Positions 10,457 through 34,527 of a stretch of DNA of 34,527 nucleotides are shown piece after piece. Numbering within the stretch: position 1 is the stretch's first letter; every line of letters starts with the position of its first letter. The stretch is taken from the IMG/VR virus record IMGVR_UViG_2667527789_000014. One strand, given 5' to 3'. This DNA comes from a virus (taxonomy: Duplodnaviria > Heunggongvirae > Uroviricota > Caudoviricetes). The notes under the pieces are model-generated. The model had not been told where the DNA came from, ran no database searches, and saw only the letters and a list, made by a program, of their open reading frames with translations. Position numbers and translations under genes: made by a program.

Positions 10457-12618
10457 TCATCCAGTTGCCCCGGCGTCATCGGGTTCTGCGTGTTGATTGT
10501 CAGATTGCCGAACGTCCGGCTGTTGTCGATACGGGTTGAGGTGTCCGTGCGTATCTGGTTGCGTATGCCTCCGGGTGGCAGCTCTGCGCTGATGCGGTTG
10601 CCTGCCAGTGCCGGGACGGCGGTTTCTGCAATCTGCGGAGGTACGGTGCTGCCTGTTGCGCCCCGCGTCATGGTGTTCACCTGCTCCGTGGGCTTCATGT
10701 CGATACTGATACCGGGGATTTTGTTCAGCTTTTCCGCAAGCCAGTTCCACGTCCGGTTAAACGAGTTTTTAATGACGTTCCATAAGTCCCCGAAGACGTT
10801 ACCGATGATCCCCGCCATTTTCCGGAAGGATTCGACCGGGGCGGTCGGGTCAAATGCAGCCACCACGTCCTGCCACCCTCTGATGACGATGGCGAAGATG
10901 TCGATCAGGGTTCTGATCACGCTGATAACCACCTCCAGCGCGGGGGATATCATGCTTACCGCTGCGGCCACCACGCGACCGCATGTTTCCCCGGCACGGG
11001 TGACGCTGTTCATCTGTCCCGTGGTCAGCTGTACCGGTGCAAACAGATCGGAGAAGGCACTGAACAGTGTTTTTATGCCCTGCCATACCGGGGCCAGCGC
11101 CCGGGCAATGTCACCGAACGCGGCAGTCACCGGGCTCATGGCGTCCAGTGCGCTGGTAAAACCATCAATAAAGCCGCGAATAAAGGCTTTGATGGGCTGC
11201 CAGAACTTAATGGCCACCACCACCAGAGCAGCGATGGCGGCGGCAACCAGGAGGACCGGGGCGCTCATGGTCAGAAACGACACGCCCGCCAGACGCGCGG
11301 CAAGACTGGTGGCAATGATGGCACTGCGTACTTTTGTGAGTGCAAGCGTGTACAGACTCCAGGCTGCCCTGGCGCCCTTTATGATGGCCTTATGGCCTTC
11401 CATGATGAAGCTGAACACACCCAGCACGATGTTCGTGACCGCACCGGCTGCGCCCAGCGCCAGCATGGTCAGCGTGATGTAACCCAGCCAGCGGGCGATG
11501 TTCGGGAACATGTTCAGCCAGCGCACGAACGTCGCGCCGATATCGGCAAAACGGCCAGCCAGTGGTGCGAGAATGGGGTAGAGGGCGTTACCGATGGCGG
11601 CCCGGATGTTGTAGAAGGAGGCCACAAGGCGGTCCCACGGGTCAGTCATGGCTTCCGCCATTTCCGTGGCACGCTTCATGCCGTCATTACGCCCCAGCGC
11701 TGATATGCTCCGGTTAAGCATTTCCTGCTGTCCCCAGAGTTTTTTAATCACGTCCGCGCCACTGCCGAAGGCGTCATCCAGCGCCTGTTGTGCCGCCACG
11801 TTACCCTCAATGTTCCTGCCGAACTTCGCCTGCAGACGGTCGAGGATGTCACCCATGGGTAAAATCTTCCCGGTGGCATCGACAAAACTCATCCCCATTT
11901 TTTGTGCGGCAGCGGGGGCACTGCGCAGGAACTCCTCATAGATGCCCGATGCCTCGGTACCCATGGTCCGTGACAGGGTGCCCAGTATGGCAAACTGCTC
12001 TGCCATGCTGACGCCAAAATCCGCGCCCGCGTTTTTGGTGCCCTCAATAAGCTCCTGCATGGTGCTCATTTCCACACCGAACTGCTGAACCATCCACGCT
12101 GTTTTACCTGCCAGATCTTCAGCAAACCCCACGGCACCCATGGCAGAAAACTCACTGCGGAAACGGGCACCCATGGCGGCAAGGTAGCCGCTCGCCTCTT
12201 CGCTGCTGACGCGGGCAGCCACGGCCAGGGTACTGGTTGCTGCCGTCACACGGGGTAAATCCCCGTCGCTCAGCCCGTCCAGTGCGCCGCGAATATGCCA
12301 TGCGGAACGGATGATCTCCGTGGAAGACTGACCGAATGCGGTCCCCAGTTTCATGGCCTGCGTGGTGAGGGCGGTCAGCGCCTGCGCTCCTACGCCTTTG
12401 GCCTCAAGCTCGCCCAGCGCCTTCTGCATCTCCCACGCCGGATCCATCGCGGCACGGATACCTTCAGCCACGCCCCACAGTCCGGCCACACCCACACCGA
12501 TACGCGCGAACGCGCCCTGCGAGCGTTCGGCGAATCCCGTCACGGATTCCTGAACCTGCCGCAGCGGGCGGGTAAGCTGGTCTGTCAGATTGATAATGAA
12601 ATCCAGCTGGCTGGCCAT
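10432..12618 (-). CDS. tail tape measure protein
   Basis: 728 aa, Ala/Gly-rich with predicted hydrophobic segments. Sits directly downstream of the frameshifting chaperone gene as in gpG/GT-TMP arrangements. Confidence 0.7.
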   Translation of the reverse strand: MASQLDFIINLTDQLTRPLRQVQESVTGFAERSQGAFARIGVGVAGLWGVAEGIRAAMDPAWEMQKALGELEAKGVGAQALTALTTQAMKLGTAFGQSSTEIIRSAWHIRGALDGLSDGDLPRVTAATSTLAVAARVSSEEASGYLAAMGARFRSEFSAMGAVGFAEDLAGKTAWMVQQFGVEMSTMQELIEGTKNAGADFGVSMAEQFAILGTLSRTMGTEASGIYEEFLRSAPAAAQKMGMSFVDATGKILPMGDILDRLQAKFGRNIEGNVAAQQALDDAFGSGADVIKKLWGQQEMLNRSISALGRNDGMKRATEMAEAMTDPWDRLVASFYNIRAAIGNALYPILAPLAGRFADIGATFVRWLNMFPNIARWLGYITLTMLALGAAGAVTNIVLGVFSFIMEGHKAIIKGARAAWSLYTLALTKVRSAIIATSLAARLAGVSFLTMSAPVLLVAAAIAALVVVAIKFWQPIKAFIRGFIDGFTSALDAMSPVTAAFGDIARALAPVWQGIKTLFSAFSDLFAPVQLTTGQMNSVTRAGETCGRVVAAAVSMISPALEVVISVIRTLIDIFAIVIRGWQDVVAAFDPTAPVESFRKMAGIIGNVFGDLWNVIKNSFNRTWNWLAEKLNKIPGISIDMKPTEQVNTMTRGATGSTVPPQIAETAVPALAGNRISAELPPGGIRNQIRTDTSTRIDNSRTFGNLTINTQNPMTPGQLDEWTELYAG

Positions 12619-24525: not shown

Positions 24526-24852
24526 TTAACGGAATGCAGCGCCGTAGATAAACAGAATTCGCTTCATGATTTCGCTGCGCTTGCAGGCTTCGATGACTGA
24601 TTTTTCCTGCTGCTGTTCAGCCCGTTGCGCCAGTTCCTGTCGTTCCTTTTCCGTTGGCTTCCGGTAATGCGTTATCTTGTCCGTGTACCCGTCCACAACC
24701 AGCAACCCTTCCCGTACCATTTTTCCGGCGGCCTGATTAATGACGGTTCTTTTCACGCCCAGTTTTTCTACCAGTTCTGGGGCGCTGAAACGTGCGTGCG
24801 TTTCCAGGTAGCGTAAAATGATTTCCTTTCCGGTCATTCCTGGGGGCTTCAT
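24526..24852 (-). CDS. winged-helix DNA-binding protein (108 aa), last gene of the early operon
   Basis: Start at 24852 (MKPPGMTGKE) with AAGGAG 7 nt upstream and an ATGA overlap with the upstream gene. The central region looks like a helix-turn-helix. Confidence 0.5.
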   Translation of the reverse strand: MKPPGMTGKEIILRYLETHARFSAPELVEKLGVKRTVINQAAGKMVREGLLVVDGYTDKITHYRKPTEKERQELAQRAEQQQEKSVIEACKRSEIMKRILFIYGAAFR

Positions 24853-25019
24853 TTGGCGGCTCCTTCGTTGTTCCGGCGTTCCCGGAGTTCGGTCAGTGCT
24901 GCCAGTAAATTCTCCCACCATGTTTCTTCCACGACCGGGTTTTGTCGTGAAAGCAGCTGCTGCGCCGACTCAATCATTTTCGTAAGCTCTCTGTCGCTGA
25001 TCCTCCTGGTGCTGTTCAT
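24849..25019 (-). CDS. hypothetical small protein (56 aa)
   Basis: Start at 25019 (MNSTRRISDREL) with AAGGAG 6 nt upstream. Translationally coupled to the downstream gene. Confidence 0.4.
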   Translation of the reverse strand: MNSTRRISDRELTKMIESAQQLLSRQNPVVEETWWENLLAALTELRERRNNEGAAK

Positions 25020-25067
25020 GGTGCGCTCCTTTAGTTGGCTGTTTCTGGTTATGTTCATGGTCTTTGT

Positions 25068-25472
25068 TTACCTGCGTGATTGTCTGCCAGCGGCTGAATG
25101 CACATAGCGGGCAATTGCCGCTTTGCGGTTAATCGATGCCAGTGTTCTGGTCAGTTCTGCGTTGTGTTTGTGTGCCTGCTCTTCGTGGTACTGCCGCATG
25201 ATTTTTCCGGCAGGCGTGAGCGGCTCCGGCTCTCCGGGCGGACGGCGCGGACGAACGGCGACAAGCCAGCTGCGGTTGGTGCTGTCCGGTCGTCCGTTGA
25301 GTATGTCGGTGATGATGGCCGTGGTGGTGCGATCGGGACTGACGACCGTGATTTCCAGCTCATCGCCCGGTTGTGGCCCCGTGGCAATGTTGTTCAGGGT
25401 CAGTAAGGGCGTGCGCTGGCGCATCATTTCGTCAAAGCGCTGGCGCTGCATGGCACAATAAAAGCGGGTCAT
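25068..25472 (-). CDS. hypothetical protein (134 aa) downstream of the replication gene
   Basis: Overlaps the replication gene stop by 4 nt. No recognisable motif. Confidence 0.45.
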   Translation of the reverse strand: MTRFYCAMQRQRFDEMMRQRTPLLTLNNIATGPQPGDELEITVVSPDRTTTAIITDILNGRPDSTNRSWLVAVRPRRPPGEPEPLTPAGKIMRQYHEEQAHKHNAELTRTLASINRKAAIARYVHSAAGRQSRR

Positions 25473-29319: not shown

Positions 29320-29582
29320 GCTCTGGCTTCCTTCAGTAGCTGGTTAAACATGTGAGTAAGTGGATTGCTACACCCGAACGGCATCGGGTTTACGTGGTAA
29401 GAAGCCTGGCCTCCTGTTTTGCGAGCGCGACCACCTGTGCTGCGGTTTGTTCTGATGACTAAGCCGCCGCGCCAGAGTCGGCGTAACTCAGCATTAATGG
29501 CTGTGGTCTGGGTATTCAGTGCCGTGGCGATTTCACTTCCGCTGCACCCCGGATTGGCTGCGATGTAGTCCAGAATGGTCAT
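29316..29582 (-). CDS. putative winged-helix DNA-binding protein (88 aa)
   Basis: N-terminal segment ILDYIAANPGCSGSEIATAL...ELRRLWRGGLV looks like a helix-turn-helix with wing. Flanked by the two paralogous genes. Confidence 0.4.
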   Translation of the reverse strand: MTILDYIAANPGCSGSEIATALNTQTTAINAELRRLWRGGLVIRTNRSTGGRARKTGGQASYHVNPMPFGCSNPLTHMFNQLLKEARA

Positions 29583-29607
29583 CGTGAGATCTCCTTTGCA
29601 GTTCCGG

Positions 29608-29859
29608 TTATTCAGTCGGGTTCAGGGTGTAATCAATGGCGTTTTCAATACGGCGTTTAAGGTCCCGGTGGATCTCACCTGGTGTTACTGGTGCGCCCGG
29701 ACCGCTCAGCGTTGCCGTGAAGTCGTCGATTTCCTCCAGTAACAGATTGCGGAGTACGGCGATGTGGTGGCGTGCGTCTTTACCGGGTTTACGTGCGTTG
29801 GTGGTGTACTTGCTGATCATGGCCGCAGCTCTCCGTGGGCTTGTGTTTCTGATTTCCAT
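29608..29859 (-). CDS. hypothetical early protein (83 aa), paralog of 29020-29319
   Basis: See the paralog. EIDDFTATLSGPGAPVTPGEIHRDLKRRIENAIDYTLNP versus EIADFCATLEAPGEPETPEAIQQELLQRIDKVFDFFLNQ. Confidence 0.45.
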   Translation of the reverse strand: MEIRNTSPRRAAAMISKYTTNARKPGKDARHHIAVLRNLLLEEIDDFTATLSGPGAPVTPGEIHRDLKRRIENAIDYTLNPTE

Positions 29860-30083
29860 GCCCCTCTGATGGTCATTACTTCGCGAACGGTACTGGCAAT
29901 CGCGGTAATTTGTGTGCCGTCAGCCAGATGGATGTAGAGATAATCAGCGTCTGACGGGCACGGCGTGGTCGTTGTGATCAAATAACTTTCCACCATGAAC
30001 TCGCGGCCTGCGGCATCGGTGAAATGCGTCAGCAGGGTTCGTCTTGTGGCGGTAAATATGCTGTTCATCGTCCTGCCCCTCAC
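29817..30083 (-). CDS. hypothetical protein (start at 30083 or 30068)
   Basis: ORF packed between neighbours with a 4 nt overlap upstream. No motif recognised. Confidence 0.4.
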   Translation of the reverse strand: MRGRTMNSIFTATRRTLLTHFTDAAGREFMVESYLITTTTPCPSDADYLYIHLADGTQITAIASTVREVMTIRGAWKSETQAHGELRP

Positions 30084-30358
30084 GCTGAAAACTGGCCGGA
30101 CTGTGCCCGGAGTTCTGCCAGTTCGCGCTCGAGGCGCAGGTTTTTCATATAGAGTTCACTGATGGTCTGTTTTGCTGTCACCATTGCCATGCTTTGCATT
30201 TGCAGGGCCATGTAGGTGGCAAAATGCTTGTCTTTATCTATTTCTGATATTCTTTCATCCAGTACATTGGTTATTTCAGTCAGCGTTTTTTGCGTCAATT
30301 CAATATGCGCCGGGTCGGTAAATAGTTTGTTTATTTCTGTAGGTGTATTGGTGCTCAT
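30080..30358 (-). CDS. hypothetical protein (92 aa), low-GC, predicted coiled coil
   Basis: AT-rich compared with neighbouring phage genes. C-terminal LRLERELAELRA heptad-like segment. Confidence 0.4.
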   Translation of the reverse strand: MSTNTPTEINKLFTDPAHIELTQKTLTEITNVLDERISEIDKDKHFATYMALQMQSMAMVTAKQTISELYMKNLRLERELAELRAQSGQFSA

Positions 30359-30437
30359 AGCTGTTTCTCCGTTTCTGGATTGAGTGAAGCCCTCCGCAGA
30401 TGCGGATGGTTTTAATGTTTTCTGTCCGGTTGGTTAT

Positions 30438-30563
30438 TTATTTACGGCGTTCTTCGCCAGTAAATAAAGATTCGATATTTTTCAGCGCTTCGATAATTCG
30501 CATAATGCCAATCGCCATAAGCACGGAAATAATCAGAATCACCCATGAAAGAAATACGCTCAT
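30438..30563 (-). CDS. small hydrophobic peptide (41 aa), single predicted transmembrane helix
   Basis: MSVFLSWVILIISVLMAIGIMRIIEALKNIESLFTGEERRK. Its ATG overlaps the stop of the upstream gene (ATGA). Below the ORF-track size cutoff. Confidence 0.4.
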   Translation of the reverse strand: MSVFLSWVILIISVLMAIGIMRIIEALKNIESLFTGEERRK

Positions 30564-30802
30564 GCTGCCACCTCTGTGAAATAAGGCTCAACGATTTCAC
30601 CTTCAAACAGTTCGGCCACAATAACTTTTAATTCTTCCAGTGCTTCGCGGTCATCGCTGCCCAGTGCGCAGTTATACAGTCCCATAATTGCGCCCCGCAG
30701 TGAGTTACGAAGTCCTTCGTCCCGGGTTACCCCCCGGTTTGCGAGTTCGAAGTGATAACGCTGCAACGCATTATTAATAAGTATTTTGTAGGCTTCGATC
30801 AT
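30560..30802 (-). CDS. hypothetical protein (80 aa)
   Basis: ORF in the early operon, coupled to the downstream peptide gene. Confidence 0.45.
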   Translation of the reverse strand: MIEAYKILINNALQRYHFELANRGVTRDEGLRNSLRGAIMGLYNCALGSDDREALEELKVIVAELFEGEIVEPYFTEVAA

Positions 30803-30821
30803 GGCTGAATCCTTTTATTTA

Positions 30822-31160
30822 TCAGCGGCGATGTTCCGGGTGCTGAAAACTGCGACCGCTGATTAACCGGTCTGCCGTTCTTAATGCTTCGTGCAGGGTG
30901 AAATCCTGCCCGAACTGCTCATCTCCGCGAGTCAGGGAGTAACAGGTATTTCCGGTAATCGGGTTGCGTGCGCCTCTGTGTATGACAATTCCGGCATCAT
31001 TAATCAGCCAGGTATGTTTACCGGTTTGTTTAACCAGATGCCCGTCAGGTGTGGCGTGCGTTTCCTGCAGGCTGTAGTGCGAGTTGCTGCGTGATGCGCT
31101 GGTTGAGAAACGGGCTGCGTGGCGTTCTGTGCCAGTGCGGAAGCTGCGTCTCTGTGTCAT
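30822..31160 (-). CDS. hypothetical protein (112 aa)
   Basis: ORF in the early operon. No motif recognised. Confidence 0.45.
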   Translation of the reverse strand: MTQRRSFRTGTERHAARFSTSASRSNSHYSLQETHATPDGHLVKQTGKHTWLINDAGIVIHRGARNPITGNTCYSLTRGDEQFGQDFTLHEALRTADRLISGRSFQHPEHRR

Positions 31161-31268
31161 ATCGGAAAACCCCGTTTAAGTTAAATGAAAATCAGTGCCG
31201 GGATGTTTAACCACGCCCGGCGCGTGGTATTCTGGTGTTTCCACACAACCAGAAAAAAGGTAACTAAC

Positions 31269-31592
31269 ATGATTGATAAAAGCGTTAAGGACGCTATCAC
31301 TGAATACCTGGTTAGCATTTACACAACTAATCTTGCTGTGGCTCCTGTTGATAAGTTGACTGACCCAAGAGACTCAGTGGGAGTGGTGTCCGATCTGCTT
31401 ATTTCGCTCCTCATTAGCGAACTTCCCGATGATAAAAGGGATGCATTGATGAAAACTGCGTCAGAAATTTTGCGTCAGATAGAGGGGCAACAAGCCTTTG
31501 CTCCCTATGCCGTGAATATAAGGACACGATTTCATAGTATTAATCATCTTGCGTGCTTTATTCGCGCCTCTAAAGACAAACCAGATCTCTGA
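31269..31592 (+). CDS. hypothetical protein (107 aa), low-GC, opposite strand to the early operon
   Basis: Start at 31269 (MIDKSVKDAITEY). Upstream has a candidate promoter, TTTAAC-16 nt-TATTCT, whose spacer carries the inverted repeat CCACGC-ccggc-GCGTGG. The 3' end overlaps the convergent gene by about 23 nt. Confidence 0.45.
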   Translation: MIDKSVKDAITEYLVSIYTTNLAVAPVDKLTDPRDSVGVVSDLLISLLISELPDDKRDALMKTASEILRQIEGQQAFAPYAVNIRTRFHSINHLACFIRASKDKPDL

Positions 31593-32061
31593 CTTGTTCA
31601 ACAATATATTTTTCCACCCCTTCTTTGACTGGCAGGTTCCGGTCAAGGGAGGGGAAAAGAATCAATGGTTTTTGTAAAAATCCCATTAACGTCGATAAAA
31701 ACTCAATTTTCACATCGAAGCCTTCTGATTTTCGTCGCATTATTTCGCGTTGTACGATTGGCCACATGTAGTCCAGGTTAATTTTCTTTAGCTCCGCAAC
31801 GTAATTAAGGTATGCCTCGCACCCCTGAATGCTTACAGGTCTAAAAGAAATATCCAGATAATTATCAGGAATAATCGTACTGGTTGAATAAATAATTCCA
31901 CCCACAACCCTATCTTTGTGCTTTATTGCTCTGACAAAAAATGTTTTGCCTTCTAAATCCCTTTCTGTTGCCAGCCAGGGGTCTCCTGTTATCAGGCAAT
32001 CCTCGTCAATGGCGATTGCTTCGCCAGCCTTGCTCCCGTGTTCGCTGTATTTCTTAATCAT
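31570..32061 (-). CDS. hypothetical protein (163 aa), low-GC accessory-like gene in the early operon
   Basis: GGGAGGA 5 nt upstream of the ATG. Roughly 40 percent GC by eye against about 55-60 percent nearby. No motif recognised. Confidence 0.5.
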   Translation of the reverse strand: MIKKYSEHGSKAGEAIAIDEDCLITGDPWLATERDLEGKTFFVRAIKHKDRVVGGIIYSTSTIIPDNYLDISFRPVSIQGCEAYLNYVAELKKINLDYMWPIVQREIMRRKSEGFDVKIEFLSTLMGFLQKPLILFPSLDRNLPVKEGVEKYIVEQVRDLVCL

Positions 32062-32091
32062 CCTGTCCTCCCAATGATTGCCAGTTCTATA

Positions 32092-32517
32092 TCACGCAGC
32101 TTTTTTACTGATGCGTTTATTCCGTGAACCAGCTGCTGGCTTAAATAAAAAAAGTCGGTTTTCCCATTCGTGCCATTCTTGCGGTGCGTTTTCAGTGAGT
32201 CGATCGCAGGCTTCATCCCATGCTTTCCGGTTGATGTAAAGTTCGGCGTTTCCGCCAGGCTTGAGGGGATCCGCCATGTACACAGCGGGTAATTTCCCTG
32301 CTTTTGCCATGCTCACGATGGCGTCAACGGTCTTGCCGATATACATCGCAAACCCTTCTTTTGACAGGAGATGAGAAGGGTTTTGTGAAAGCCTGATTTC
32401 CTGGCGTTCAGGGGCTTTGCGCCCGGTCTTTTGGTGTGCGGTTTCTGGCGCATCTGTCAACTGATCGCACTGTGTTTCGGCAGGCGATTCAGGCGCGTTT
32501 TGAGTGACTTCTTGCAT
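32092..32517 (-). CDS. Cox-like excisionase/regulator with an N-terminal extension
   Basis: Start at 32517 (MQEVTQN) with GGAGGA 6 nt upstream. The C-terminal ~85 aa (YIGKTVDAIVSMAKAGKLPAVYMADPLKPGGNAELYINRKAWDE) resembles P2 Cox as I recall it. First gene of the leftward early operon, divergent from the repressor. Confidence 0.5.
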   Translation of the reverse strand: MQEVTQNAPESPAETQCDQLTDAPETAHQKTGRKAPERQEIRLSQNPSHLLSKEGFAMYIGKTVDAIVSMAKAGKLPAVYMADPLKPGGNAELYINRKAWDEACDRLTENAPQEWHEWENRLFLFKPAAGSRNKRISKKAA

Positions 32518-32624
32518 CTGGTATCCTCCGTTATTGGCCCCTTTTTCGAATAGGGACCATGTAGAACCAATTGCGACTATTCTTGTGTTGCTATACACAA
32601 AAATTATTGGAGATTAGAAAAATT
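32518..32624. promoter_or_regulatory. lysis-lysogeny switch region (divergent early and repressor promoters)
   Basis: A 107 bp AT-rich gap between divergent Cox-like and repressor genes. TTATTGG repeats at 32530 and 32604; candidate -35/-10 hexamers TTGCGA and TATACA on the plus strand. Confidence 0.45.
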
Positions 32625-32924
32625 ATGTCAATACCGCAAAATGAGAAATTAAAACTTATCAGAGAGTCCGAACGGATGAAAATGAAGGAACTATCTGATT
32701 TAATTGGAATTAATTACTATACATATCATGGCTATGAAAGTGGGAAATCTAAGATGCCTCTTGATTTTGGGATCCTTCTTTTGCGGCACGCTCGTTTCCG
32801 TAAATACCGTGACTGGTTTTTGTTCGATGAGGTCGAACCAAAGGCCGGGCAGGTGGTACCGGCTCTCGCACACATTGGGCAAAGCGAAGCGGAATCATCC
32901 CACTCCGGCAAGAAGACTGGTTAA
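32625..32924 (+). CDS. immunity repressor, P2 C-type
   Basis: 99 aa, the same length as P2 C. Ends PALAHIGQSEAESSHSGKKTG against PALAHFGQNETTSPHSGQKTG in my recollection of P2 C. GGAG ribosome-binding site upstream. The track ORF starts earlier at 32571. Confidence 0.8.
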   Translation: MSIPQNEKLKLIRESERMKMKELSDLIGINYYTYHGYESGKSKMPLDFGILLLRHARFRKYRDWFLFDEVEPKAGQVVPALAHIGQSEAESSHSGKKTG

Positions 32925-32990
32925 CGGTCCATCTGGCCTTTATTTCTCAAAATTGTGATCAAGATGATGTTTTCATTGGGGGGCTTCCTT

Positions 32991-33986
32991 ATGTCGATTA
33001 AGAAGCTCGCTGATGGCAAATACTGTGTGGACGTGCGGCCTGCTGGATCTGAAGGAAGAAGATTTCGGCGGCGATTTCCTACCCGTGGTGAAGCGGCGAT
33101 GTATGAACGCCATGTTCTGACGCATTATCACGATAAGGACTGGGTCGAAAAACCTATTGAACGTAAAGCGTTAAGCGATCTTCTGGAACTGTGGTGGGTG
33201 TACCACGGTAAGAATCATCGTTATGGCGCGATGAATCGGGTCAGAATTGAAGCGGTTCTTCGTGATATGCAAGAGCTTGGTATTAACAGAAGTGACCACT
33301 TAACCCGAAAAAATATTATCAGATATCGCCTTGAATTAATGAATCGCGGAATTAAGCAGTCAACGGTAAATCGTTATTGTGCAATGATGAGCGGTTTCTT
33401 TGAAAAGCTGATTGATGTTGAAGAGTTTGTGGGTGATAACCCGTTTCACGAGATACGCAAGCTAACAATTAATCAGCCGGAAATGGCTTATCTTGCACAT
33501 GATGATATTCCCAGGCTAACCGCACTTTTATCTGGCGATAATCTTAAGGCTGTATTGTTAAGCCTGGCTACAGGCGGACGCTGGGGTGAAGTTGCCAATA
33601 TTAAAGGTGAACACATAATTGGTGGGAAGGTTATTTTCATGGAGACAAAGAATGGATCGCGGCGGGTTATTCCTATAGCTAAAGCTCTTGAATCTCTGAT
33701 TAAAGTCAAAGCGACGGGAAGATTAATGAACCCCAGTTATGCGATAGTCAGAAGTGCAATAAGGACTGTGCGGCCTGATTTACCAGTCGGTCAGTCTGTG
33801 CATGTTTTACGGCACACATTCGCAACTCATTTCATGATTAATGGAGGGAACATTATTACCCTTCAGCGTATTTTAGGGCACAGCACAATTCAGCAGACAA
33901 TGACCTATGCGCACTTTGCACCTGATTATCTCCAGGACGCGGTAAGGTTCAATCCGGTTGCGGAGTTGTCCAGATTTTGCCCATAA
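32991..33986 (+). CDS. int: tyrosine integrase (P2 Int-like)
   Basis: Starts MSIKKLADGKYCVDVRP (compare P2 Int MAIKKLDDGRYEV). C-terminal catalytic region HVLRHTFATHFMINGGNIITLQRILGHSTIQQTMTYAHFAPDYL carries the R-H-R-Y signature residues. Confidence 0.85.
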   Translation: MSIKKLADGKYCVDVRPAGSEGRRFRRRFPTRGEAAMYERHVLTHYHDKDWVEKPIERKALSDLLELWWVYHGKNHRYGAMNRVRIEAVLRDMQELGINRSDHLTRKNIIRYRLELMNRGIKQSTVNRYCAMMSGFFEKLIDVEEFVGDNPFHEIRKLTINQPEMAYLAHDDIPRLTALLSGDNLKAVLLSLATGGRWGEVANIKGEHIIGGKVIFMETKNGSRRVIPIAKALESLIKVKATGRLMNPSYAIVRSAIRTVRPDLPVGQSVHVLRHTFATHFMINGGNIITLQRILGHSTIQQTMTYAHFAPDYLQDAVRFNPVAELSRFCP

Positions 33987-34261: not shown

Positions 34262-34275
34262 TTAAGGAGGTGCAG

Positions 34276-34527
34276 ATGCGTATTACCATAAAAAGATGGG
34301 GGAACAGTGCAGGTATGGTCATTCCCAATATCGTAATGAAAGAACTTAACTTACAGCCGGGGCAGAGCGTGGAGGCGCAAGTGAGCAACAATCAACTGAT
34401 TCTGACACCCATCTCCAGGCGCTACTCGCTTGATGAACTGCTGGCACAGTGTGACATGAACGCCGCGGAACTTAGCGAGCAGGATGTCTGGGGTAAATCC
34501 ACCCCTGCGGGTGACGAAATATGGTAA
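34276..34527 (+). CDS. chpS: MazE/ChpS-family antitoxin (83 aa)
   Basis: MRITIKRWGNSAGMVIPNIVMKELNLQPG... has the AbrB/MazE fold signature and matches E. coli ChpS as I recall it. AAGGAGG 5 nt upstream. The cognate toxin gene would lie beyond the window end. Confidence 0.75.
   Translation: MRITIKRWGNSAGMVIPNIVMKELNLQPGQSVEAQVSNNQLILTPISRRYSLDELLAQCDMNAAELSEQDVWGKSTPAGDEIW

Follow-up and report, generated by a model that had tools for sequence, protein, structure and literature searches.

What do two convergent genes of low GC (guanine plus cytosine) content do inside the early operon of a temperate phage, and does the palindromic element in front of one of them belong to the pair? The locus that raises this question lies at positions 31161–32091 of the IMG/VR virus record IMGVR_UViG_2667527789_000014, a stretch of 34,527 nucleotides (nt) whose full length is referred to here as the window. 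A preliminary description, made from the sequence by eye, had read the locus as a candidate accessory module of foreign composition, of the defence, exclusion or toxin-antitoxin kind. The element is a P88-like prophage of Escherichia coli; its nearest isolated phages are P88-like members of the genus Xuanwuvirus (Peduoviridae, the P2 family), and the immunity and early genes of this P2-family prophage occupy the right end of the window. The pair, here called orf107 and orf163, is a new and very rare entry among prophage accessory genes. The regulatory cassette upstream of orf107, with its rotating cargo, is the more general and more interesting result.

A Convergent Gene Pair in the Early Operon

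As first described, the two genes are convergent with overlapping 3′ ends. The plus-strand gene orf107 (31269–31592) encodes an acidic protein of 107 amino acids (aa; isoelectric point, pI, 5.6) that is predicted to be all-helical, and the minus-strand gene orf163 (31570–32061) encodes a protein of 163 aa (pI 5.8) with a predicted beta-rich N-terminal half and helical C-terminal half; their coding ends share 23 bp (31570–31592). A longer, 135-aa reading of orf107 from 31185 was dropped, as conservation among its relatives ends at the ribosome-binding site (RBS). The orf163 protein has a grand average of hydropathy of −0.07, and no membrane segment was seen in its model. Good RBSs precede both genes. 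The ratio of nonsynonymous to synonymous substitution rates (dN/dS) is 0.46–0.61 for orf163, which is constrained yet fast-evolving, and 0.15–0.19, from few differences, for orf107. Because dN/dS is below 1, homologues at 23–59% identity retain full-length frames, and the convergent, overlapping layout is kept at 23–32% identity in an unrelated element, both can be taken as genuine coding genes.

The GC content of the pair, 41.3% in orf163 (42% at third codon positions, GC3) and 43.2% in orf107 (GC3 40%), is markedly below that of the adjacent Cox (50.9%) and DUF4761 (55.5%) genes, the whole window (55.4%) and the structural genes (55–60%, GC3 63–72%), in agreement with the initial observation. 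Low GC is shared by a few other genes of the early and immunity region, namely int (44.8%), orf92 (44.8%) and a 41-aa gene (38%), and is not peculiar to the pair.

The placement of orf163 on the early transcript, just after the Cox-like gene, was also borne out. It starts 30 bp behind the Cox-family gene (32092–32517, minus strand; Pfam PF10743, Phage_Cox, E 1.1e-27; phrog_1831, E 2.8e-50), and the intervening spacer (32062–32091, minus strand) carries a strong RBS, GGGAGGA (32066–32072), with neither a promoter nor a terminator called there by the promoter and terminator scan. This spacer and the first orf163 codons are common to two related prophages (L002 and L006). A candidate early promoter, Pe (TTGACA-17-AATAAT, 32603–32631, minus strand; promoter-scan match 11 of 12), would drive transcription of cox together with orf163, and its placement between the repressor gene C and cox agrees with the annotated P2 record.

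Neither protein belongs to a recognised family, as had been suspected. Profile (hidden Markov model) and fold searches with orf163 and orf107 gave zero matches in Pfam, PHROGs, PADLOC, NCBIfam, PDB sequences and the fold library, and PADLOC-DB 2.0 profiles returned nothing at E ≤ 1 for either. Profile searches with distant homologues of both proteins were likewise empty, and three of these proteins (P0009 of contig L033, a 241-aa protein of L099 and a 96-aa protein of L033, see below) had no PADLOC-DB 2.0 match at E ≤ 0.1.

A Swappable Slot between cox and DUF4761

The pair was expected to be an accessory insert in an interval that varies among relatives, and comparison of the region between cox and the DUF4761 gene (30822–31160, minus strand; Pfam PF15958, E 4.7e-48), which form the upstream and downstream edges of the slot, agrees with this. 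The slot is empty in P88, where the two edge genes are 37 bp apart. It holds one unannotated 76-aa open reading frame (ORF) in L002, an orf163 relative with a co-directional 99-aa gene in L006 and L007, a 131–140-aa gene with a convergent 63–64-aa gene in L003 and vB_EcoM-705R2, and a 131-aa gene, orf163 and the convergent orf107 in L001 and L008–L011. The 76-aa ORF of L002 (3114–3344, minus strand, NZ_CP148318.1) starts with an orf163-type RBS and first codons (MIK) and continues with the body of the 99-aa gene found behind the orf163 relatives of L006 and L007, and resembles a deletion or fusion scar.

Conservation of the pair across most P2-like phages and a composition indistinguishable from its neighbours, the two outcomes named as disproof in the preliminary description, were not seen: its DNA (orf163–orf107) is present in 3 of 5,426 complete E. 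coli genomes, with distinct GC, and the exact junction of the window with its own cox is found in none of the 5,426. By these comparisons the pair is a rare accessory cassette, horizontally exchanged, in a swappable cox–DUF4761 slot. The main defence hotspot of P2 lies between gpA and gpQ (PMC9122126), and a 2026 survey places 8% of the defence systems of P2-like prophages between the integrase and gpA/primase (PMC13586616); an accessory site in the int–gpA interval is plausible, since published surveys locate P2 defence systems there. In the literature searched, no description of a slot at cox–DUF4761 resolution, or of DUF4761 itself, was found.

A Palindromic Cassette with Rotating Cargo

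The claim that orf107 has its own upstream control element with a palindrome proved sound, with the element standing as a promoter candidate that is conserved and covarying in more than 120 phage contigs. In order, this regulatory cassette (31186–31257, plus strand) contains a short conserved lead-in, TGAAAATCAGTG, two palindromes that overlap each other, a motif resembling an extended −10, and a leader rich in CA that includes TTTCCACA (31238–31245). Palindrome 1 (31197–31221, plus strand), as read from the sequence, pairs GCCGGG (31197–31202) with CCCGGC (31216–31221) over a spacing of 13 nt and makes up the principal stem when 31190–31268 is folded as RNA (z −4.19); among variants its arms are 11 or 13 nt apart. 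Palindrome 2 (31211–31227, plus strand) reads CCACGC-ccggc-GCGTGG, and its CCAYG/CRTGG arms covary in all 68 unique variants, the pairs being C..G or T..A and never mixed (L033 has the CCATG/CATGG form). In its 21-nt version the motif was found a single time in the window, against a chance expectation of 0.01. A candidate extended −10, TGgTATTCT (31225–31233, plus strand), was read from the sequence, with a predicted transcription start at about 31240. Its general form, TGnTAnnnT, directly adjoins the palindrome in 22 of 72 unique contexts and is set 6–7 nt further downstream in 22 others; about three-quarters of the unique contexts have an extended −10-like motif after the palindromes.

Among aligned relatives, positions 31197–31256 are nearly invariant, and the flanks and the downstream ORF switch abruptly at the RBS. 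An exact-pattern scan found 30 loci in which the cassette stands ahead of four unrelated ORFs (107, 64, 91 and 78 aa), and a relaxed-pattern search found at least 123 copies, with 68 unique variants among the matches listed. The cassette is present in more than 120 Peduoviridae (P2/186-family) contigs, ahead of approximately 30 unrelated small ORFs; copies lie in L004 (2503–2561), L005 (2510–2568), L033 (2034–2071, minus strand), L099 (10729–10790) and about 120 IMG/VR loci (L013–L139). The palindrome is not peculiar to this module and is part of a generic cassette common to many unrelated cargo genes. Its conserved core comprises the lead-in TGAATnnGTG, GCCGGG-N11/13-CCCGGC with CCAYG-N7-CRTGG, TGnTAnnnT and the leader motif, and an RBS and ATG follow 35–80 nt downstream. 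A crude call sorted the cargo ORFs into 38 clusters, of which a handful are spurious; of ten cluster representatives searched, seven fell into as many different PHROG families, all function-unknown, and the four best-sampled cargo proteins were not detectably homologous to orf107 (hhalign probabilities ≤ 2.5%).

In all 77 loci whose flanks were recognised by reference proteins (approximately 40 further loci had unrecognised flanks), the cassette aims in the C/CI–int direction, antisense to the early genes. It sits between C and cox, after cox, or, as in SopEPhi, after cII, and is not present in the P2 and 186 genomes. No description of the cassette sequence was found in the literature searched, and the cassette may mark an undescribed hypervariable locus in P2/186-family phages.

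Several known elements were considered and set aside. As a known RNA family the cassette has no counterpart, the Rfam 15 covariance models giving no match at E ≤ 1 in 29500–33200. It contains one 9-mer resembling a half-site of the 186 pE/CII site, unconserved among variants, and the direct repeats that flank Pe, ATAATTTTT, expected of a P2 C operator, are absent from 31186–31268. By eye there was neither the TGT-N12-ACA of an Ogr/Delta late promoter nor a match to a LexA box or a sigma-54 promoter. The missing U-run spoke against an intrinsic terminator on both strands, and a connecting loop of just 1 nt against an H-type pseudoknot between the two palindromes. A sigma-70-like site antisense to orf181 in L006 was no better than chance expectation. 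As a separate observation, the leader sequence (G/C)TTTCCACA, at 31238–31246 and at the same place in many variants, matches 8 of 9 positions of the DnaA-box consensus TTWTNCACA and falls just downstream of the predicted transcription start.

Distant Relatives and Co-inheritance

Four protein-cluster relatives of orf163 (52–98% identity) were found, in E. coli only, along with two distant ones, P0009 in L033 (23% identity, hhalign probability 95.5%) and the 241-aa protein in L099 (hhalign 97.9%, E 4.9e-13). The relatives of orf107 are one close cluster and one distant homologue (32% identity), which has the signature VSDxLISLLISEL in common with it. Word-indexed searches were complemented by an exhaustive HMMER search of 1.84 billion representatives, which gave nothing real beyond the known relatives (two of its five hits were repeat-protein noise), and by pattern scans of IMG/VR and JGI metagenomes, which found no further ones.

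In L033, a Logan contig of 5954 bp (SRR24146886), P0009 is followed by a convergent orf107 relative with a 3′ overlap of 38 bp, in surroundings with a different cox, a Toprim primase replacing DUF4761 and an Ogr/Delta gene. Because L033 repeats the convergent pair, both known orf107 lineages are partnered by an orf163 homologue, and the convergent, overlapping layout is kept although the region otherwise swaps its genes freely. Judged from these two lineages, orf163 and orf107 appear to travel together over deep divergence. The cassette faces the 3′ end of orf163 in three of the four orf163 lineages. The Toprim primase of L033 is P4-alpha-like, and L033 may be a satellite-like or hybrid P2/P4 element.

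Compared with its relative in L006 (5001–5546), orf163 is a mosaic, the synonymous divergence (dS) being 0.15 in the N-terminal half and 1.40 in the C-terminal half, with a recombination breakpoint in the middle of the gene. Of the two halves, it is the helical C-terminal domain that varies in step with whether orf107 is present.

A Conserved Hairpin within orf163

Just past the orf107 stop codon, a 16-bp hairpin (31617–31654, plus strand) lies within the orf163 codons for LDRNLPVKEG, which form the most conserved motif of the orf163 family, LDxxLPxxE. On the plus strand it folds at −29.9 kcal/mol (z −3.55; none of 200 shuffles equal), compared with −19.0 (z −1.17) on the minus strand, where the fold is weaker because several pairs are G-U. 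The hairpin is found in all four orf163 lineages, those without orf107 included. Across these lineages, 92% of the cells are paired, five of the 16 pairs show changes on both sides (compensatory), and pairing drops to 45–63% in slid registers. The covariation score of 0.51 exceeds that of shuffled alignments (0.33 ± 0.05), and none of 500 shuffles reaches it. With only four sequences to compare, the evidence for conservation of the hairpin is suggestive, not conclusive.

A Possible Antagonistic Pair and Its Alternatives

We favour, tentatively, a reading in which orf163 and orf107 form an antagonistic pair, resembling an effector and its antidote, that is split between the lytic and lysogenic states. 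In this proposal orf163 would be co-transcribed with cox from Pe and made only in lytic growth or on infection, acting as an early-phase effector on the host or on competing phages. The orf107 gene would be transcribed oppositely, in the C/int (lysogenic) direction, from a promoter in the palindromic cassette that would be active in the prophage, and its transcript would extend antisense into the 3′ end of orf163, across or up to the hairpin. In the prophage, Pe would be repressed and orf107 on, and any leaky orf163 message would meet antisense RNA; in lytic growth, strong transcription from Pe would make orf163 and suppress orf107 through collision and antisense pairing. The orf107 product, whether protein, antisense 3′ RNA or both, would antagonise orf163. 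The anatomy, the variable slot, the conservation of pair, cassette and hairpin, and the covariation in palindrome and hairpin are seen directly in the sequences compared. Promoter activity, reciprocal expression and interaction of the products are what we infer from this arrangement; reciprocal expression is expected because the two transcription units converge and overlap. Pe and pR are known to be repressed in P2 and 186 lysogens, and convergent promoters interfere mutually (PMC6593788). As orf163 rides the Pe transcript, which is repressed in the lysogen, the pair cannot be a classical two-protein system co-expressed there.

In favour of this proposal are the convergent, overlapping layout kept in L033, the cassette facing orf163 in three of its four lineages, the hairpin with its compensatory changes and bias to the antisense strand, the constant orientation of the cassette in loci with recognised flanks, the lack of a separate promoter for orf163 behind cox, and the coding constraint on both genes. 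Several points weigh against it. The same cassette heads approximately 30 unrelated cargoes that have no orf163-like partner. Both proteins are acidic, and no resemblance to known toxins, antitoxins or defence proteins was seen in either. A generic sigma-70/promoter scan did not call the candidate site, its −10 being missed because the −35 is poor. The stem of the hairpin is followed by AAAAGAAUCAAUGGUUUUUG and was not called by the terminator scan; lacking a U-run, it is not a canonical intrinsic terminator. The orf163 relatives of L006 and L007 (P0003 and P0004) have neither orf107 nor the cassette, and a co-directional 99-aa gene comes next. L099 is also without orf107, its cassette and leader being followed only by a 20-aa mini-ORF (10837–10903, plus strand). 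With two orf163 lineages devoid of orf107, the pair is, on present sampling of sequences, not obligate, and an obligatory antidote is unlikely since L006/L007 and L099 do without it. Co-inheritance in L033 could be plain linkage. The L099 mini-ORF overlaps the 3′ end of the 241-aa orf163-family gene, and this cassette may work purely via antisense RNA. The L099 arrangement, together with the strand bias of the hairpin, suggests that the antagonism works at least in part through antisense RNA.

The main rival to the antagonistic pair is that the two are independent accessory genes, neighbours by linkage only, with orf163 an early-lytic gene (for example in anti-defence or host takeover), orf107 generic cassette cargo, and the overlap and hairpin incidental or a 3′-end structure of the cargo. 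The breadth of the cargo argues for this, as the roughly 30 small ORFs behind the cassette have partners as varied as cII, orf131 and C, as do the orf163 relatives without orf107 and the finding of orf131 together with several different cargoes, whether or not orf163 is there. It accounts poorly for the finding that both orf107 lineages are convergent and 3′-overlapping with an orf163 homologue despite 23–32% identity and different surroundings, and for a hairpin that compensatory changes maintain and that folds better on the antisense strand; we regard it as possible but doubtful. A function of the cassette itself in the lysis-lysogeny switch, with a leftward promoter that opposes Pe and reads towards C–int, similar to 186 pE in place and direction, and with the small ORFs as passengers, appears unlikely. 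The constant orientation towards C/CI–int (loci with recognised flanks) at 0.5–2.5 kb inside the early operon, the same direction as pE, which is located between apl and cII, and a 9-mer common to the cassette and the left CII half-site of pE are consistent with such a unit. The second CII half-site is missing and ATGTTT is unconserved among variants, the cassette also occurs in phages without cII (the window and L005) and not in P2 and 186 themselves, and the hairpin after orf107 may end the transcript well short of cox. Nor does a switch unit account for the cargo behind every copy, an ORF of a real phage protein family with a good RBS within 35–80 nt.

It is improbable that the pair is a lysogen-expressed module of a classical kind, whether for prophage defence, for superinfection exclusion or as a type II toxin-antitoxin system. 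The rare, variable, low-GC insert, its position in the interval reported to hold 8% of P2-like defence systems (PMC13586616), the two-gene unit kept in L033 and the fast evolution of orf163 (dN/dS 0.46–0.61) would suit it, whereas orf163 lacks its own promoter, belongs to a Pe operon that is silent in lysogens, occurs without orf107 and, like orf107, has no PADLOC, Pfam or fold match, and a convergent overlap is unusual for type II systems. Chance reading frames or decaying remnants without function are very improbable, the extreme rarity of both families being the sole point in their favour against dN/dS below 1, full-length frames in homologues at 23–59% identity and good RBSs on both genes. 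Of the accessory-module reading given in the preliminary description, the exchanged insert, the control element of its own and the joint travel of the two genes stand; no link to a known defence or toxin-antitoxin family emerged, and neither an obligate pairing nor a module-specific palindrome is supported.

Beyond the antagonistic pair itself, a broader reading, which we consider rather unlikely as a whole, would see in the cassette the mark of an unrecognised hypervariable locus in P2/186-family phages, a conserved, probably regulated, lysogeny-direction promoter placed antisense in the early operon and expressing a changing set of small proteins, for example for exclusion, for anti-defence or for modulating the switch. 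Within this locus, orf163/orf107 would be an effector/antidote pair of a new kind, assigned to lysis and lysogeny by convergent transcription and with an antisense hairpin in the effector coding sequence.

Comparison with Known Systems

Phage morons are reportedly autonomous accessory transcription units in prophages (Juhala et al. 2000 and Cumby et al. 2012, via PMC9122126). The locus resembles them in its promoter-like element, deviant GC, patchy presence among relatives and lysogen-oriented expression (here proposed). Patchy presence and deviant composition were both found for the pair; where a moron has its own promoter and terminator, it has the conserved extended −10-like cassette and, after the ORF, a strong hairpin with no U-run. 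Unlike a moron, the unit is embedded in antisense orientation within the early lytic operon and runs tail-to-tail into a gene of that operon, which overlaps it and accompanies it, and its control cassette is common to about 30 unrelated cargo genes.

Antisense control through overlapping 3′ ends is established for txpA/RatA and bsrG/SR4 (type I systems of Bacillus subtilis prophages), lambda oop-cII and P22 sas-sieB. Shared with these systems are the convergent units, the 3′ overlap, the structured antisense end and, as we propose here, expression of one partner in the prophage state. The proposed target here encodes a soluble, acidic protein of 163 aa and not a small membrane toxin, and the antisense transcript would itself code for a 107-aa protein. 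The oop and sas antisense RNAs have been described previously (PMC7067206). Set against toxin-antitoxin types, the 23-bp coding overlap and the conserved antisense-strand hairpin reproduce a type I geometry as far as sequence alone can tell, whereas orf163 is not a hydrophobic membrane peptide of less than about 60 aa. The genes are convergent and in separate units, unlike the co-directional, autoregulated operon of type II systems; neither protein has a type II family or fold, and PADLOC-DB 2.0 assigned neither to a known defence system.

In anti-CRISPR/aca loci, a conserved regulatory inverted repeat stands ahead of fast-swapping small ORFs. The cassette is similar in combining a palindromic promoter region with highly variable small proteins of unknown family; it differs in having no conserved helix-turn-helix (HTH) regulator gene and a lysogenic instead of immediate-early orientation, and no cargo matches a known anti-defence protein. 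The slot resembles the P2 defence hotspots (gpA–gpQ, PMC9122126; the minor int–gpA interval, PMC13586616) as a variable accessory locus and lies within the int–gpA interval. In contrast to them, it has no recognised defence gene, is finer (cox–DUF4761), and is tied to a specific cassette that neither of the two papers mentions. As to 186 pE, the cassette is likewise a (candidate) leftward promoter in the early operon directed towards the repressor and integrase genes, and shares 9 nt with it, GGGATGTTT. However, pE needs inverted CII half-sites (ATGTTTG/CAAACAT) 20 bp apart over the −35, a pair that the cassette lacks, and the cassette lies after cII in SopEPhi, always has its own ORF and is absent from 186.

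Prophage accessory genes are a main source of new defence and counter-defence functions, and attention in P2-like phages has so far been on gpA–gpQ; the present locus suggests that their early region holds another variable site, on a finer scale. The dual palindrome is a sequence tag with which dozens of uncharacterised small-protein families could be harvested. Antisense placement inside the lytic operon would be a simple state-specific design that automatically turns a gene on in lysogens and off during the lytic phase, and if orf163 and orf107 do antagonise each other, toxin-antitoxin logic would be linked to the lysis-lysogeny switch.

Other Features of the Prophage

On the plus strand, the immunity region comprises a C-type HTH repressor gene (approximately 32626–32924) and the integrase gene (32955–33986). 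Minus-strand genes follow in the order Cox, orf163, DUF4761, DUF4754 and more small genes, with the replication endonuclease after them. Just past the integrase end of the prophage comes chpS, a host antitoxin gene (34270–34527, plus strand; NCBIfam equivalog, 196 bits), and sister prophages adjoin ppa, which together place the attachment site in the ppa–chpS region.

The classical gpA–gpQ hotspot of P2 is also occupied in the window (24526–25472, minus strand), by two small genes. The first encodes a 131-aa winged-helix protein with a sub-threshold MarR_2 match and a weak PADLOC MkoB/WH match, and the second a 134-aa protein with no match. A second low-GC patch in the early operon encodes a 92-aa protein (30080–30358, minus strand) with weak PADLOC matches to the candidate-system proteins PDC-M64B (E 3.7e-4) and PDC-M64C (E 3.3e-3). 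The 41-aa gene mentioned above (30438–30563, minus strand, 38% GC) encodes a hydrophobic peptide and overlaps the DUF4754 stop by 4 bp; its P88 counterpart is annotated as a membrane protein.

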